6,571 bases of DNA from a virus (taxonomy: Duplodnaviria > Heunggongvirae > Uroviricota > Caudoviricetes). The stretch lies in IMG/VR virus record IMGVR_UViG_3300012089_000069, positions 1 to 6,571 of that record. The stretch is one strand, 5' to 3'. This document shows positions 1 to 5,445 of the stretch, in pieces. Position 1 is the stretch's first letter; each line of letters starts with the position of its first letter. Position numbers and translations under genes: made by a program. The notes beneath the pieces are model-generated. The model was not told the origin of the DNA. It made no database searches and saw only the letters and a program-made list of their open reading frames with translations.

Positions 1-51
1 AATCGCTTCCGGCAACTCGTGAGTAAAAAGATTCGGTATCAGAAGAGGTGA
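1..51 (+). CDS. 3' end of an upstream gene (partial; 5' end outside window), C-terminal peptide NRFRQLVSKKIRYQKR
   Basis: Frame 1 is open from position 1 to TGA at 49-51. The stop lies 2 nt before the ATG at 54 of the next gene, a coupling-type arrangement. Too short to assign a product. Confidence 0.3.
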   Translation, partial: NRFRQLVSKKIRYQKR

Positions 52-53
52 GT

Positions 54-1124
54 ATGGCTAACGCCTGGCTCAGATTATGGCATGACATGCCAAATGACCC
101 TAAGTGGCGAACAATTGCCAGGGTGTCAGGGCAGCCAATTGCAACAGTGATGGCAGTGTATATCCACCTCCTGGTGAGCGCGTCACGAAATGTCACGCGA
201 GGTCACATTGATGTCACGACAGAAGATTTGGCAAGTGCGCTCGACGTGACAGAAGAGGTAATTGATTCAATTTTGCAGACGATGCAGGGGCGGGTACTTG
301 ATGGTGATTTAATCACTGGATGGGAAAAACGCCAGGTGCTTAAAGAGGACAACGGCAATATTTCGCAAACCGCAAAATCTCCTGCAGAGCGCAAGAGGGC
401 GCAGCGAGAGAGGGAAAGAAAGCGGGAACAAAATGGCGATTGTCACGGCGCGTCACGAAATGTCACGCACATGTCACGACGAGTCACGACAGATAAAGAT
501 ACAGATAAAGATACAGATCAAGAAGATCAAAACACTATGGTCCATGGCGTAAAAAACGCCACGGACCAGGCAGGGGATGTTCAGACCGTCACTCCTGGCC
601 AGCCCGCAGGCACGACACCGGAAGCCGATTCAGCGTATGTGCTGAAAGCCGATTCGGGCGCTGTGCAGCAGGTGATGACCGCAAGGCAGGAGCAATCACA
701 CCAACTTCAGCAGCCTGAAGCCGATTCCGCCATTCAGCGGGAAGCCGATCGGGTAGTCCCGGAAAACACCGGGCAGCCTGTGGGACGAGTGGATTATCCT
801 GATGTGTTCGAACAGGTCTGGCGGGAATACCCGTTGCGTGCCGGGGCAAACCCGAAGAAATCCGCTTTCAGTGCCTGGAAAGCCAGATTACGCGAGGGGG
901 TGCCACCAGAGGCCATGCTGGATGGTGTGAGGCGTTACGCAAGATACCTGGCGGCTACCGGGAAAACGGGAACGGAATTTGTTCAGCGAGCGACGACGTT
1001 TTTTGGACCGGACCGGAATTTTGAAAACCCCTGGCTGCTCCCGGTAAGCGGCACGAACAACCAGCGTTGTGTGAATCATATTTCTGAACCGGATACCGAA
1101 ATTCCACCGGGCTTCAGGGGATAA
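54..1124 (+). CDS. Phage replication initiator / replisome-organizer-type protein with intragenic origin iterons
   Basis: Long ORF; ATG at 54 is preceded by AGAGGTG (the track's GTG at 48 is less likely). The N-terminus (MANAWLRLWHDMPNDPKWRTIA...) resembles phage replisome-organizer N-terminal domains. The C-terminal region (FEQVWREYPLRAGANPKKSAFSAWKARL...FENPW) resembles DnaD-like C-terminal domains of phage initiators. Two iteron clusters sit inside the ORF and translate to the repeated peptide ASRNVT(R/H)...VTT, as with lambda ori inside gene O. Family assignment is from memory, not a search. Confidence 0.7.
   Translation: MANAWLRLWHDMPNDPKWRTIARVSGQPIATVMAVYIHLLVSASRNVTRGHIDVTTEDLASALDVTEEVIDSILQTMQGRVLDGDLITGWEKRQVLKEDNGNISQTAKSPAERKRAQRERERKREQNGDCHGASRNVTHMSRRVTTDKDTDKDTDQEDQNTMVHGVKNATDQAGDVQTVTPGQPAGTTPEADSAYVLKADSGAVQQVMTARQEQSHQLQQPEADSAIQREADRVVPENTGQPVGRVDYPDVFEQVWREYPLRAGANPKKSAFSAWKARLREGVPPEAMLDGVRRYARYLAATGKTGTEFVQRATTFFGPDRNFENPWLLPVSGTNNQRCVNHISEPDTEIPPGFRG
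178..250. repeat. Iteron cluster 1: GTCACG/GTCACA copies starting at 182, 192, 202 and 213, plus an inverted copy CGTGAC at 245-250
   Basis: Direct repeats at 10-11 bp (one helical turn) spacing, read directly from the sequence. The 21-mer GCGCGTCACGAAATGTCACGC at 178-198 recurs exactly at 448-468. Confidence 0.65.
442..488. repeat. Iteron cluster 2: five GTCACG copies starting at 442, 452, 462, 473 and 483 (probable ori core)
   Basis: Five direct hexamer repeats with 10/10/11/10 bp phasing inside the replication gene, immediately followed by an AT-rich tandem repeat. Confidence 0.7.
491..530. repeat. AT-rich tandem repeat (AGATAAAGATAC x2, then AGATCAAGAAGATCAA); candidate DNA-unwinding element next to the iterons
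   Basis: Exact 12-bp tandem duplication at 491-502 and 503-514, then a related A-rich stretch. It translates to the low-complexity linker DKDTDKDTDQEDQ. Confidence 0.5.
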
Positions 1125-1164: not shown

Positions 1165-1587
1165 GTGGCAAAAGTTTTTACACAAGAAGAGCGAGAAAAA
1201 ATTAAAGGGCAGGTTGTTGAACTCGTACGCCAGAGTGGGCGTGAGACGTTACGGCAACTGGAAGTCAAGACAGGTGCGACAAGATATCTGATGAGCGTTC
1301 TCGCAAGAGAGCTGGTTGCCAGTGGCGATGTATACAACTCTGGTTACGGGTTATTCCCGTCTGAACAGGCGCGTAAGGACTGGCAAAATGCCCGTAAAAA
1401 GCTCTCAAGGGCAAAGCCGAAGAAAACATCTGCGGTTGATCCGGACCTTATCTGGTCATTACCAGATGGCGAAATACGCCGCTACGACAGGCGTCTGAAC
1501 ATAATCTGTCTCGAGTGCCGGAAGAGCGAAGTTATGCAGCGCGTACTGGCGTTTTATCAGGGGAATTTTGAGGAGGTGGTGCGGTGA
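1165..1587 (+). CDS. Hypothetical small phage protein (nin-region-like), 140 aa
   Basis: ORF with GTG start at 1165 preceded by AGGAGG (1155-1160). Its TGA stop overlaps the GTG of the next gene (GTGA). No motif recognised. Confidence 0.55.
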   Translation: MAKVFTQEEREKIKGQVVELVRQSGRETLRQLEVKTGATRYLMSVLARELVASGDVYNSGYGLFPSEQARKDWQNARKKLSRAKPKKTSAVDPDLIWSLPDGEIRRYDRRLNIICLECRKSEVMQRVLAFYQGNFEEVVR

Positions 1588-1838
1588 GTGAATCAAAATG
1601 CCAGGTTAATGGCAACAAGATAGAACCATGTGCAGCACTGGCAAAGTCCCTTGAGCATGATGCTGAATACACGATGCGAAAAGGTCTGCTGATATACAAA
1701 ATCTGGAATGAGAGTTTAACTCGCGGTCCTAATTTTGTGATGTTGCGTTCCGGTGAATTTTCTAAATTACCAGTTCGGGTTTCATTTTGTCCGTTCTGTG
1801 GTGAAAGTCTGAAAACGTGGGAGAACAGAAATGAATGA
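1584..1838 (+). CDS. Hypothetical small protein with four Cys (C6, C16, CPFC at 69-72), possible zinc-ribbon
   Basis: GTG start at 1584 overlaps the upstream stop (GTGA); AGGAGG at 1571-1576. Its stop overlaps the next start (ATGAATGA). Confidence 0.55.
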   Translation: MSESKCQVNGNKIEPCAALAKSLEHDAEYTMRKGLLIYKIWNESLTRGPNFVMLRSGEFSKLPVRVSFCPFCGESLKTWENRNE

Positions 1839-2247: not shown

Positions 2248-2263
2248 CCGCCCGAAAGGGCGG
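2248..2263 (+). promoter_or_regulatory. GC-rich stem-loop (CCGCCC-GAAA-GGGCGG) immediately upstream of the RBS of the Q-like gene
   Basis: Perfect 6-bp GC stem with a GNRA-type loop. No U-tract follows, so it is not a canonical intrinsic terminator. GGAG at 2265-2268 and ATG at 2275 follow directly. Confidence 0.3.
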
Positions 2264-2274
2264 TGGAGATAATA

Positions 2275-2796
2275 ATGGGAATAACTAAAGAACGATTGTT
2301 GGAAATAGCAAACCTTAGTGATTGGGCATTAAGTGATGAGAGAATTGTTTCTCCTCATGCTTATGAGTCAGTTACAAGTATAGAAATAACAACAATGGCT
2401 AGAATGCTGCTTGGTTATTTCAAAATAGAAAATAAAAAACAGATGGATAGTAATGTTGATATATGTGAGATTTTAGACGATTGGGGGGCTTGGGTTGTGG
2501 CTGGTAATAGTTCTATTGATTGGCAGGAAATAGCTGATAAATATAAAAATGTTGTTCCTCATGGTAAAAAATCACGTCGTCAGTGCAGCAATGATGAAGG
2601 GCGAATTATTGACATTAGTATCCTTATGTTAGAAAGATATAAGCAACAAGAATATGAGTTAATTGTTGCTCATTTCGTGATTGGTTTATCTCTTCGTGCT
2701 ATTGCAAAGCAACAAGGATGTTCAGATGGAACAATTCGTAAAAGATTGCAAAAAGCCTTAGGTTTTTTGACTGGATATATAGCAATTACCAGTTAA
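2275..2796 (+). CDS. Q-family late-gene antiterminator-like protein (phage 21/82-type Q; QuuD-like) with sigma-70 region-4-like C-terminal HTH
   Basis: ATG at 2275 with GGAG 6 nt upstream. The protein has a WGAW motif, SRRQCSNDEG, and a C-terminal GLSLRAIAKQQGCSDGTIRKRLQKALGFL. These match my recollection of E. coli DLP12 QuuD (ERWGAW ... SRPQCCDDD ... CSDGYIGKRLQKAEG). An alternative internal start at 2443 (MDSNVDICEILDDWGAW) would give a QuuD-length protein. The gene is AT-rich compared with the flanking phage genes. Confidence 0.65.
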   Translation: MGITKERLLEIANLSDWALSDERIVSPHAYESVTSIEITTMARMLLGYFKIENKKQMDSNVDICEILDDWGAWVVAGNSSIDWQEIADKYKNVVPHGKKSRRQCSNDEGRIIDISILMLERYKQQEYELIVAHFVIGLSLRAIAKQQGCSDGTIRKRLQKALGFLTGYIAITS

Positions 2797-3434
2797 GAGT
2801 CAGCGGTTTTTTTACCAGTGTAATGGTATAAGGATACTCCCATGTGTCTTACATGATATGGAAGCGCTGTTGCTGGATGCTTTGTGATACTCTTAAAGCG
2901 GAGGGGAGAGCCTTCCGCTTCAATTTCTGCGTCCGAAACGGTCGTAGAGAAAAATTCTTTCCATTCATTGAATTTTACTGCTGATTTGTCAGACTTTATA
3001 TAAATTAGAATTCCTCCATGATCGTCACGTGACGTACCCGTGCCGTAACGTTCGGTTAGCTGAATCCAGCCATTATGAATAGATTTGGGGCCTCTCCATA
3101 ATTTTGCTTCACCGATCCATTCGAATTTTCCGAATTGATGTTTAACTAATAAATCAACGTGACCGCCATGTTGAGTATCATGTTCAACATCATAAAACCT
3201 ACCTTTCAGGAAATTTTTGATCGACGCTGTTAGCTCGTCCTCTCCCCACTTAGCATCTTGATAGAAGTGTTTGTCATTTTCTAAATTCTGAATAGCGTCG
3301 TCTAAATCTTCATAGAGTTGCTTTACAAAAATATTTTTGTCTGCAGCTAATTTTCTTTGAACCATTCCCCTAAATTCAGGATCCATTCTAATTAATGATT
3401 GAAGGTCTGCAGTACAGATGTTTACATCACTCAT
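2793..3434 (-). CDS. Third gene of the minus-strand operon: putative PD-(D/E)xK / Mrr-like restriction-endonuclease-fold nuclease, 213 aa
   Basis: Likely start is the ATG at 3434-3432 (MSDVNIC...), which overlaps the upstream stop as ATGAGTGA. The track's longer N-terminus has no RBS and lies inside the upstream gene. Motif GGHVDLLV-x10-EWIGEAK (D94, E109, K111) fits D...(D/E)xK. The stop codon shares 2 nt with the stop of the convergent Q-like gene. Confidence 0.6.
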   Translation of the reverse strand: MSDVNICTADLQSLIRMDPEFRGMVQRKLAADKNIFVKQLYEDLDDAIQNLENDKHFYQDAKWGEDELTASIKNFLKGRFYDVEHDTQHGGHVDLLVKHQFGKFEWIGEAKLWRGPKSIHNGWIQLTERYGTGTSRDDHGGILIYIKSDKSAVKFNEWKEFFSTTVSDAEIEAEGSPLRFKSITKHPATALPYHVRHMGVSLYHYTGKKTADS

Positions 3435-3855
3435 GCAGACTCTCCAAAAGACTCGAAGGAGTAAAGTATGGATAAAGATACTGGCTAAAATTATCAACCA
3501 ATTCGCCAGTTTCTGGATGGTAAAAACTTCCTGTGTCTAAAGCATAGGAAATAAGATCATCTTCAACTGGTATTGGTTCTTCCGTTAAATTATCAATGTA
3601 TTGAAAATGCATATCCAATAGATGTGCTTTATAGCTAGATAAATAATCAGTTGCTTTTATTAGCAGGATATAGTCATCTTTCGTATCAGTTAGATAGGTT
3701 AAACCATTGATAAGGGTTTTGTATGTAAAGTGATTGATATTTTTAGCATCTTTACTAACCAGAAAAAGAAAAAGATCACGACACACACTGCGAACAGGAT
3801 CATTAAAATCCTGCTCTATTTGCGTGATAATGTCGTGATATATACTCTTTTTCAT
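3427..3855 (-). CDS. Second gene of the minus-strand operon: small acidic protein of unknown function, 142 aa
   Basis: ATG at 3855-3853 overlaps the stop of the upstream gene (ATGA). The protein is D/E-rich with no recognisable motif. AT-rich codon usage matches its neighbours. Confidence 0.6.
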   Translation of the reverse strand: MKKSIYHDIITQIEQDFNDPVRSVCRDLFLFLVSKDAKNINHFTYKTLINGLTYLTDTKDDYILLIKATDYLSSYKAHLLDMHFQYIDNLTEEPIPVEDDLISYALDTGSFYHPETGELVDNFSQYLYPYFTPSSLLESLHE

Positions 3856-4943
3856 TTATGGCCTGATGATCTCGCTCTTCTTTTCTCTTCACAGGACTTA
3901 ACAGAATCCAATATTTTTTCAACAATAAATATAATCGAATCAATGTTGTTACAGTTCTTCGCAATTGCTTCATGCAACCTAATTCTAGGATTATCAAGCA
4001 TTGTCCTTTTTCCTGGTAATATTAACTCTACTGATAAAATATGTGAAGAACTTTGTGGTAAATCCCAAATTTTTCCCAACTTAAACTTTGTCAATATTGG
4101 GCTTGCGGACTCTCCACTATGATGGTAAACATCTTGACGCAAACACTTTTGACTTGGTTTGAGTTTTAAAGAACTTGTATTGCCATCTGAGGTGATAAAA
4201 GATACATGAGAAATTCTGCCATCTACTTTTTCGTAAAGATCTTGTATTGAACCAAATAATTCAAGAGGATTGTTTAAAATAACGCCAGCTTCTTTTTTTA
4301 TAAATTTAGCCACAAGGTATTGTTGAGGCTGTGATTCACTTCTTGGAAGGATAGATAAATCAATCGTAAGAATTAATATTTTTTCTGCAGGCATTAGCAT
4401 GATGGTATTAAAGCATTGCGTGACTTGGCGTGTTTTGCATTTTATTTCTCCACCATTAGCACGTAATTCCATACCCGCATCGCTAAGATGTGTTGGGTCA
4501 AGCTCTATCACTTCAGTGTAATACGCTTTGGATAAAAAAACAGCAGTGTCAATTTGTTTATCACGAATGATATCTTGACGTAGTTCAGCAAAATGCAGCT
4601 CAGTATCAGCAACTAACAGCTCCTCTCTGGATAAAGGAGTTGGGTATTTTTCTGAGAAGGGGCTATTGTCCTTTTTCTGATTTGTGAAAATTGTTTGTAA
4701 TTTTGCTACGTCTTCATCGGTGATTCTATAAATAGAAAGTAATCGATTCCCGCTAAAAATTAAACCTTTCCAGAAATCGTCGATTCTGTCTTTTAGGTCG
4801 GGATTATGCTGAACTACACTATTTACACGTTCAATAAAAAGGGGTAATCCTTGGGCCGTTACACCCAGTGATGAACCAAGAAGCTTACGGGTGTTGCGCC
4901 AGCCAAAGCGTGAATTGATGTTTTTTACTGTTTGCTCAAGCAT
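3852..4943 (-). CDS. :: First gene of the minus-strand operon: 363-aa protein of unknown function, a candidate sensor or specificity component
   Basis: Long ORF. The probable start is ATG at 4943-4941 with AAGGAA 6 nt upstream; the track start at 4949 is a GTG two codons earlier. No Walker A, methyltransferase or obvious HEPN/TIR motif seen. The C-terminus is basic (KRRARSSGHK). Confidence 0.6.
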   Translation of the reverse strand: MLEQTVKNINSRFGWRNTRKLLGSSLGVTAQGLPLFIERVNSVVQHNPDLKDRIDDFWKGLIFSGNRLLSIYRITDEDVAKLQTIFTNQKKDNSPFSEKYPTPLSREELLVADTELHFAELRQDIIRDKQIDTAVFLSKAYYTEVIELDPTHLSDAGMELRANGGEIKCKTRQVTQCFNTIMLMPAEKILILTIDLSILPRSESQPQQYLVAKFIKKEAGVILNNPLELFGSIQDLYEKVDGRISHVSFITSDGNTSSLKLKPSQKCLRQDVYHHSGESASPILTKFKLGKIWDLPQSSSHILSVELILPGKRTMLDNPRIRLHEAIAKNCNNIDSIIFIVEKILDSVKSCEEKRRARSSGHK

Positions 4944-4949
4944 TAACAC

Positions 4950-5100
4950 TTCCTTAATTTTCCCTTAACAATTTAGGGTGCTAAACTTTTTTGCGCAGTT
5001 TACATAAAAAAATAGTGCGTACGCAAAAACTATCTAACATGATGAGCTTTAACCGGGAAATTTGTATATGTTGTGAGCATAAAGTTGGCTGAGAAATCTA
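4950..5100 (-). promoter_or_regulatory. Probable promoter/operator region of the three-gene operon, containing the perfect palindrome TGCGTACGCA (5016-5025)
   Basis: AT-rich non-coding DNA upstream of the first operon gene. Only weak sigma-70-like hexamers can be picked out by eye. The 10-bp palindrome is a candidate operator. Confidence 0.3.
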
Positions 5101-5289
5101 AAACGGGTAGAATGACTGCGGGTGCTTGAGGCTATCTGTCTCAGGCATGAACACCAAAAGGCAGATAGAGAAAAGCCCCAGTTAACATTACGCGTCCGGC
5201 AAGACGCTTAACATTAATCTGAGGCCATATCTATGCTCTACACACGTAGGTTAGCCTCTTACGTGCCGAAAGGCAAGGAGAAGCAGGCT

Positions 5290-5445
5290 ATGAAGCAGCA
5301 AAAGGCGATGCTAATCGCCCTGATCGTCATCTGTTTAACCGTCATAGTGACGGCACTGGTAACGAGGAAAGACCTCTGCGAGGTACGAATCCGAACCGGC
5401 CAGACGGAGGTCGCTGTCTTCACAGCTTACGAACCTGAGGAGTAA
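5290..5445 (+). CDS. hokD: Hok/Gef-family type I toxin (small membrane host-killing peptide), 51 aa
   Basis: Peptide MKQQKAMLIALIVICLTVIVTALVTRKDLCEVRIRTGQTEVAVFTAYEPEE carries the Hok signature (CLT...LVTRKDLCE...EVAVFTAYE). As I recall it, this matches E. coli HokD/RelF. AAGGAG at 5274-5279. The track's upstream in-frame ATG at 5233 is unlikely to be the true start. Confidence 0.85.
   Translation: MKQQKAMLIALIVICLTVIVTALVTRKDLCEVRIRTGQTEVAVFTAYEPEE

Follow-up and report, generated by a model that had tools for sequence, protein, structure and literature searches.

We suggest, with about an even chance of being right, that a nuclease-based cassette for defence or exclusion, made of three proteins and hitherto undescribed, travels as cargo on prophages, satellites and plasmids, and that its DNA-binding subunit is protein A, encoded by the first gene of a three-gene operon in a Rac-like lambdoid prophage of Escherichia coli. 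Directly shown are the order and conservation of the three genes (A, B and C), the folds of A and C as modelled, the catalytic site of C and the residence of the cassette on mobile elements. The stretch of DNA analysed here (the window) is 6.6 kb long (6,571 nucleotides), and its features are listed in Table 1. It is 100% identical to the sequence of the O145 strain RM9154-C1 and 99.9% identical to that of the enteropathogenic E. coli (EPEC) strain E2348/69, in which the prophage adjoins ompW. All three minus-strand ORFs between the Q-like gene and hok/sok carry the RefSeq label 'hypothetical protein'.

Table 1. Features of the window in order of position (aa, amino acids).
Feature	Position	Strand	Remarks
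Replication-initiator gene	48-1124	+	
DUF977 gene and two small ORFs	between the replication-initiator and Q-like genes	+	
Q-family antiterminator-like gene	2263-2796	+	Pfam PF06530, E 3e-31; convergent with C
Gene C	2793..3434	-	213 aa; predicted PD-(D/E)xK (BamHI/BstYI-like) nuclease, proposed effector
Gene B	3427..3855	-	142 aa; acidic, proposed adaptor or inhibitor
Gene A	3852..4943	-	363 aa; predicted RdgC-like fold, proposed DNA-binding sensor or loader
Non-coding region upstream of the operon, within the island	4944..5107	-	
hok/sok type I toxin-antitoxin locus, complete	5120-5445	+	directly right of the island; sok at 5120-5295

Gene A had been described in the initial annotation as encoding the largest protein of an AT-rich island, and both the length of its ORF and its base composition agree with this: the GC content is 0.364 for gene A and 0.360 for the island (2265-5107), compared with 0.496 and 0.536 for the flanks. 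Homology to sister (i.e., other Rac-like) prophages ends on the left at ~2264-2292, where the Q-like gene begins, and on the right at ~5107, just before sok; the inserted block therefore consists of the Q-like gene, C, B and A. In the sister prophage of strain AVS0536, the slot between a 103-aa ORF and hokD is filled by eight unrelated small ORFs, and the whole cassette is present in only 14 of the 5426 complete E. coli genomes. The slot accommodates variable cargo, of which the cassette is a rare kind. The adjacent hok/sok locus is well recognised (Rfam sok, 117 bits; HokD, Pfam HOK_GEF, E 3e-23) and is followed on its right by further nin-region genes on the plus strand; of the query sequence, it is the sok/hok leader region that occurs in 4516 of the 5426 E. 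coli genomes. Left of the island, an 84-aa ORF (1584-1838, plus strand) is intact in the window, and its counterpart in E2348/69 (L001, 10885-11139) has an internal stop and carries a pseudogene annotation. E2348/69 itself is therefore excluded as the source of the window, in keeping with the 100% identity to RM9154-C1.

Gene A reads on the minus strand from ATG 4943 to a stop codon at 3852-3854. Its mechanical ORF opens two codons earlier, at GTG 4949; a Shine-Dalgarno sequence (AAGGAAG, 4955-4949) lies 5-7 nt ahead of ATG 4943, and the same start is used by RefSeq (WP_000893384.1). Shine-Dalgarno and RefSeq start thus agree, and the earlier placement of A at the head of an operon stands: there are three minus-strand genes, of which A is the first and the largest. 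The stop codon of A overlaps the start codon of B in the sequence ATGA, and 8 nt (ATGAGTGA) are shared between the end of B and the beginning of C; the three genes are translationally coupled. For C, RefSeq (WP_001380433.1) uses a start at 3386, 16 codons later than ATG 3434, which gives a protein of 197 aa. We use ATG 3434 because of the 8-nt overlap with the stop of B, the match to PHROG 9664 and the conservation of the N-terminus among homologues. At the other end of the operon, the stops of the convergent gene C and Q-like gene overlap by 4 bp.

No sigma-70 promoter for the operon was called by a consensus scan of the region upstream of A. Weak promoter-like hexamers (TTAGAT, 5037-5032, and TATTTT, 5014-5009; 7 of 12 consensus matches) could represent the operon promoter, and there is an 8-bp inverted repeat at 4988-4995/5022-5029. 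Furthermore, an element TTTTTGCG[G/T]AC(C)GC lies ~80 nt 5' of A in all eight lambdoid-prophage loci read (the window, within 4988-5037, and L002, L009, L010, L016, L032, L037 and L047) and in none of nine other contexts. The element contains the palindrome GCGTACGC or GCGGnCCGC, its version in the window being the 10-bp palindrome TGCGTACGCA at 5016-5025. It could be an operator/promoter of the cassette, or else a Q-binding or late-promoter element of the opposite strand.

Protein A itself appears to belong to no described sequence family. Pattern searches revealed no Walker A, methyltransferase, DEAD or HNH pattern, and no family of Pfam, NCBIfam or PADLOC matched, in agreement with the initial annotation, which had reported the lack of P-loop, methyltransferase and helicase signatures; the only family match is PHROG 12777 ('unknown function'). 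Scans of 87 diverse relatives against Pfam, NCBIfam and PADLOC gave nothing usable, PHROGs matches were to 'unknown function' families only, and A-family profiles matched PDB sequences at chance level only. The protein is nevertheless not the orphan that it had been taken for. A word-indexed search retrieved 32 clusters at 90% identity (all from Enterobacterales and all 'hypothetical'), and a profile built from these 32 clusters and run against 1.84 billion representatives retrieved 499 clusters (50% identity) at E <= 1e-3, 290 of them at E <= 1e-10. Nearly all are 335-402 aa long (about 350) and match over their full length; neither fusions nor domain shuffling were found among the 499 clusters. 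A search for related loci with the A profile yielded 34 IMG/VR loci and one species-representative genome, and tblastn with A against isolated phage genomes gave two weak Acinetobacter matches only.

Conservation within this family is uneven. The C-terminal tail of A is indeed basic, as had been noted (pI 9.6 over the last 25 aa), but residues 356-363 are missing in 80-93% of the 87 diverse members; the basic tail is therefore specific to the lineage of the window rather than a feature of the family. Lysine or arginine is conserved at positions 12, 19, 39, 67, 260, 262, 269, 288 and 343, a pattern compatible with nucleic-acid binding. The most conserved segment family-wide comprises residues ~237-278 (~4110-4235 of the window) and includes Y237, G242, T251, R269, H274 and G277 as well as the basic positions 260, 262 and 269. 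In the structural model, residues ~250-280 are the least confident part (pLDDT 60-65), and the segment 237-278 is possibly a mobile finger or an interface with a partner or DNA. The family-wide invariants include D195 and H274, which a pure DNA-clamp model does not explain. A helix-turn-helix reading of residues 17-46 was dropped, as the motif is not conserved across the broad family.

In the confident AlphaFold2 model of A (27-sequence alignment; pLDDT 84.3, pTM 0.82), the N-terminus forms a three-helix segment (residues 1-63); two alpha+beta halves come next, and a long helix makes up the C-terminus. A Foldseek search with this model against the viral models of BFVD returned RdgC of Serratia phage JS26 as the best match (E 8.7e-7, probability 1.0, 379 aligned columns), followed by other phage 'recombination-associated' proteins; Foldseek with BFVD served as a second, independent method and library, and RdgC came first in both. 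The modelled fold of A is that of the RdgC/RexA/Iml3-Chl4 group of DNA-binding proteins, with the base and centre domains of RdgC present. RdgC, Iml3 and Chl4 are structural relatives of lambda RexA and have been grouped with it as a shared DNA-binding scaffold, in which RdgC encircles DNA as a ring, Iml3-Chl4 sits on centromeric DNA as a horseshoe, and the non-specific DNA binding of RexA follows a conformational change (PMC11077077). Part of RexA also resembles a Cas2 domain (PMC11077077). Distant relatives of A gave scattered weak PADLOC matches (1-2 of the 87 members per model), e.g. to Cas2 (best E 2.5e-4); these may be coincidence or a faint echo of a shared half-domain.

Neither A nor any of the 87 diverse relatives matched the Pfam models for RdgC (PF04381) or RexA at E <= 0.01, and hhalign of the A-family profile with an RdgC alignment (15 sequences of 22-93% identity, from E. 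coli and 11 phage RdgC proteins) gave a probability of 1.3%, i.e., no homology signal. Protein A is thus predicted to have the RdgC fold, yet it falls outside the RdgC family by sequence. The remote-homology check on a predicted structure that had been proposed for A thus recognised an RdgC-like fold; since the likeness is at fold level only and the same fold occurs in RexA, the sensor of lambda Rex exclusion, it does not place A in a characterised family of unrelated function.

The fold could also be taken to mean that the cassette is a recombination or replication accessory of its element, in which an RdgC-like A modulates RecA or replication restart, C is a recombination or processing nuclease and immunity plays no part. 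Phages commonly carry RdgC homologues (387 phage records), which have recombination-associated annotations, and A shares their fold in the model. However, true phage rdgC genes are sense-oriented and lie in early or recombination modules near genes for SSB and exonucleases, whereas the triad is antisense to the phage genes, AT-rich, rare and also found outside phages. Furthermore, A has no sequence relation to RdgC, and the prophage of the window already possesses its own recombination genes. We consider this explanation highly improbable and prefer that of a defence or exclusion cassette.

The model of C (33 homologues; pLDDT 91.9) shows a predicted restriction-endonuclease-like alpha/beta core similar to BamHI/BstYI. 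Residues E65, D94, E109 and K111 are invariant in the 33 homologues and are kept in six further distant orthologues; they make up the canonical E...D...ExK site and lie on the expected secondary-structure elements. At the sequence level, the family of C is matched by PHROG 9664 and, weakly, by Pfam PDDEXK_9 (3 of 33 homologues), and the C profile matched PDB sequences at chance level only. C belongs to the PD-(D/E)xK superfamily and is an active-looking nuclease.

None of the three proteins contains a methyltransferase motif or a Pfam methyltransferase domain, and no methyltransferase gene is conserved beside the triad across the loci read. Only the Kosakonia loci have one nearby: in Kosakonia-type prophages (L010/L011, 4253-5323), a gene for an N6_N4 DNA methyltransferase is located between the holin genes and A. 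As it is absent from the other loci, it probably represents phage cargo of its own rather than a cognate methylase. A nuclease of this kind could act in a type IV-like, methyltransferase-free restriction, a sub-case of defence in which A would slide on or clamp DNA, read modified bases and deliver the BamHI/McrC-like C. This version is weakened by the fact that the triad possesses neither an NTPase nor a modified-base reader, and it appears unlikely to us. We keep to the more general reading of A as the DNA-binding subunit of a nuclease-based cassette.

The genomic context of A was read in 15 lineages besides the window. These are Salmonella, Yersinia, Erwinia, Kosakonia, Shewanella, Photobacterium, the Enterobacter kpr-6 locus, plasmids of the cyanobacterium Calothrix (385 kb) and of Moritella (19 kb), and six metagenomic lineages with 18-25% identity to A. 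In 14 of the 15, A is followed by a gene for 130-164 aa and then by one for 192-248 aa, usually with overlapping junctions; in the remaining one (P0150), the contig ends inside the third gene. The neighbours were confirmed as homologues of B and C with phmmer and hmmsearch. An arrangement in which A is a swappable sensor combined with varied effectors was not seen: all lineages with complete downstream DNA have the same two partners. Identities to A, B and C of the window are 50, 53 and 58% for Salmonella and 32, 33 and 44% for Shewanella. The three proteins diverge together, and the triad is the unit of selection.

In lambdoid prophages of Salmonella, Erwinia, Kosakonia and Enterobacter, the triad is located between the Q antiterminator and holin genes and runs antisense to the genes of the phage; the last gene of the triad has a 4-bp overlap with the Q stop. 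The interval between Q and holin genes is a classical moron position. The Yersinia triad occupies a different phage region. Other neighbours include VspR and helicase genes, an element with a P4-like primase and an excisionase, and resolvases; one triad is found within a cluster of toxin-antitoxin genes (PIN, MNT/HepT, YhaV, ParE). The triads of Calothrix and Moritella are plasmid-borne, and parA adjoins the triad on the 19-kb Moritella plasmid. Among E. coli pathogens, the prophage with the cassette is present in EPEC E2348/69 and in Shiga toxin-producing E. coli (STEC) O145, and the Salmonella variant occurs in very many Salmonella Typhimurium genomes (it is present in 2006 collection blocks). 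Being patchily distributed, AT-rich, tied to mobile elements and a transcription unit of its own, the cassette resembles defence or addiction cargo.

A Q gene is found at the same place in all lambdoid loci of Enterobacterales, and Q and C are always convergent there, with overlapping stops. The identity of Q tracks that of the cassette (53-59% for Q at 75% for A; 31-38% for Q at 50% for A), which suggests a long-term linkage of Q to the triad in lambdoid prophages. In three loci (L017, L022 and L024), the cassette is 100% identical and Q only 88-89%, which points to recombination at the junction. No Q gene is present beside the triad in the Yersinia, Shewanella, Photobacterium, plasmid and metagenome loci. 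The Q-like gene lies inside the inserted island (its GC content is 0.343) and is not a conserved component of the triad. Possibly it is a hitch-hiker, or else it acts on a promoter in the vicinity. Note that the island Q has ~65 additional N-terminal aa compared with the 121-122-aa Q flanking the triad in Salmonella, Erwinia and Kosakonia, and that, in the E2348/69 prophage, another Q of the canonical type precedes the lysis genes (entry coordinates L001 16611-17300).

Protein B is acidic (pI 4.6; median pI of the B family, 4.9) and has no Pfam or PDB sequence match. Its homologues come after A in every lineage examined, and T44, L72, L80, G109, H113 and P114 are invariant, the last three forming the motif G109...H113-P114 ('G.FYHP'). 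A gene for a small acidic protein directly upstream of, and overlapping, a nuclease gene is reminiscent of an addiction or toxin-antitoxin module by which the mobile element is stabilised, with C as toxin, B as antitoxin, A as a third, regulatory or chaperone-like part and phage defence as a by-product. The location of the triad beside parA on the 19-kb plasmid and inside the toxin-antitoxin gene cluster points in the same direction, as does the lack of a methyltransferase or another self-protection gene in the triad. Against it, A is the largest protein, is well conserved and is present in all intact loci, an unusual situation for a two-part logic, and B matches no known antitoxin family. We regard a toxin-antitoxin module as rather unlikely; it would in any case be compatible with defence by abortive infection, so that the two readings are not exclusive.

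Two IMG/VR copies from E. coli (L036 and L046) have a disrupted gene A, with tblastn spans of 222 or 188 aa at 98-100% identity, and intact B and C, and a truncated A of 219 aa (P0008) represents 74 member sequences. The nuclease C is apparently tolerated without full-length A. The disrupted copies fit the defence and the toxin-antitoxin models alike.

For the defence or exclusion cassette, we infer that the three proteins form a complex and that A binds DNA, and likewise the part played by B, the trigger and an anti-phage function; the following sequence of events can be envisaged. Expression from one translationally coupled operon would provide A, B and C in fixed proportion, and the three would form a complex. 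A, with its predicted horseshoe-shaped two-domain RdgC fold, would dimerise and bind or encircle DNA and, like RexA and RdgC, would recognise a DNA structure (free ends, recombination or replication intermediates) rather than a base sequence. The acidic B may couple A to C, or may silence one of them (C or A) as long as the cell is uninfected. Once recognition has occurred, the BamHI-like PD-(D/E)xK nuclease C would cut DNA, so that the phage is stopped or the infected cell is killed. The operon would then be a defence system and A its sensor. The initial annotation had proposed A as the likely trigger-recognition or specificity component, should the operon be a defence system, and a role in sensing or specificity is plausible; the fold, however, suggests DNA or DNA-protein intermediates as the trigger and not a particular phage protein. 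Tentatively, the triad could even be a widespread anti-phage or anti-plasmid immune system, distributed from Gammaproteobacteria to Cyanobacteria, in which an RdgC-fold clamp senses invading or replicating DNA and licenses a nuclease via an acidic adaptor.

As an immune system, the triad would add a family of at least 499 clusters (50% identity) that escapes current defence finders. The RdgC/RexA fold would then be a recurrent immune DNA sensor that is combined with effectors of different kinds, namely a membrane channel (Rex) or a nuclease (the triad). This would link two old puzzles, namely the role of the RdgC fold outside recombination control and the recognition of infection by Rex-type sensors; 60 years on, the trigger of RexA is, to our knowledge, still not known. 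With a soluble nuclease as the read-out of an RdgC-fold sensor, reconstitution should be far simpler than for RexAB, and the sensing step would become directly testable. Furthermore, the cassette may shape phage susceptibility and the outcome of phage therapy in EPEC, STEC O145 and Salmonella Typhimurium.

How does the triad compare with known systems? RdgC is a ring-shaped homodimer with a central pore, which binds DNA non-specifically and inhibits RecA. RdgC (PF04381; PDB 2OWL) and A are alike in their predicted fold and have no detectable sequence similarity; A has the additional N-terminal three-helix segment (residues 1-63), and rdgC stands by itself, whereas gene A invariably has B and the nuclease gene downstream. 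RexA of lambda RexAB is a DNA-sensing exclusion protein of the same fold group as the model of A. Its partner RexB is a membrane channel with four transmembrane helices. The triad has no RexB-like membrane partner, the maximum Kyte-Doolittle values (19-residue window) being 0.57 for B and 0.16 for C, compared with 3.07 for the hok control; the peak of A (1.74) falls in confidently modelled beta-strands. Hachiman (HamA/HamB), Shedu and McrBC combine a sensor with a PD-(D/E)xK nuclease output, as proposed here for the triad, but the triad has no helicase or GTPase partner and possesses an RdgC-fold protein and an acidic protein of 140 aa instead. It differs from type II restriction-modification systems in that the cognate methyltransferase is missing. 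In PADLOC-DB 2.0.0 (2023), A and B have no match, and C matches only weakly the candidate family PDC-S54 (E 0.002). Another system of three hypothetical proteins from an E. coli prophage, Rst_3HP ('hp + hp + hp', P2 hotspot), has been validated (Rousset et al. 2022, PMC9122126). Its proteins (333, 359 and 227 aa) are unrelated to A, B and C, and identity of the two systems was rejected, as hmmsearch of the A, B and C profiles against the published Hp1, Hp2 and Hp3 gave at most 5.8 bits. No published description of the cassette was found, the literature covered including papers on lambdoid hotspots, DefensePredictor (text and supplements) and a paper on domain-centric discovery. Apparently, we are dealing with a conserved, widespread and undescribed cassette that combines an effector of a known type with an unusual partner of the RdgC fold.
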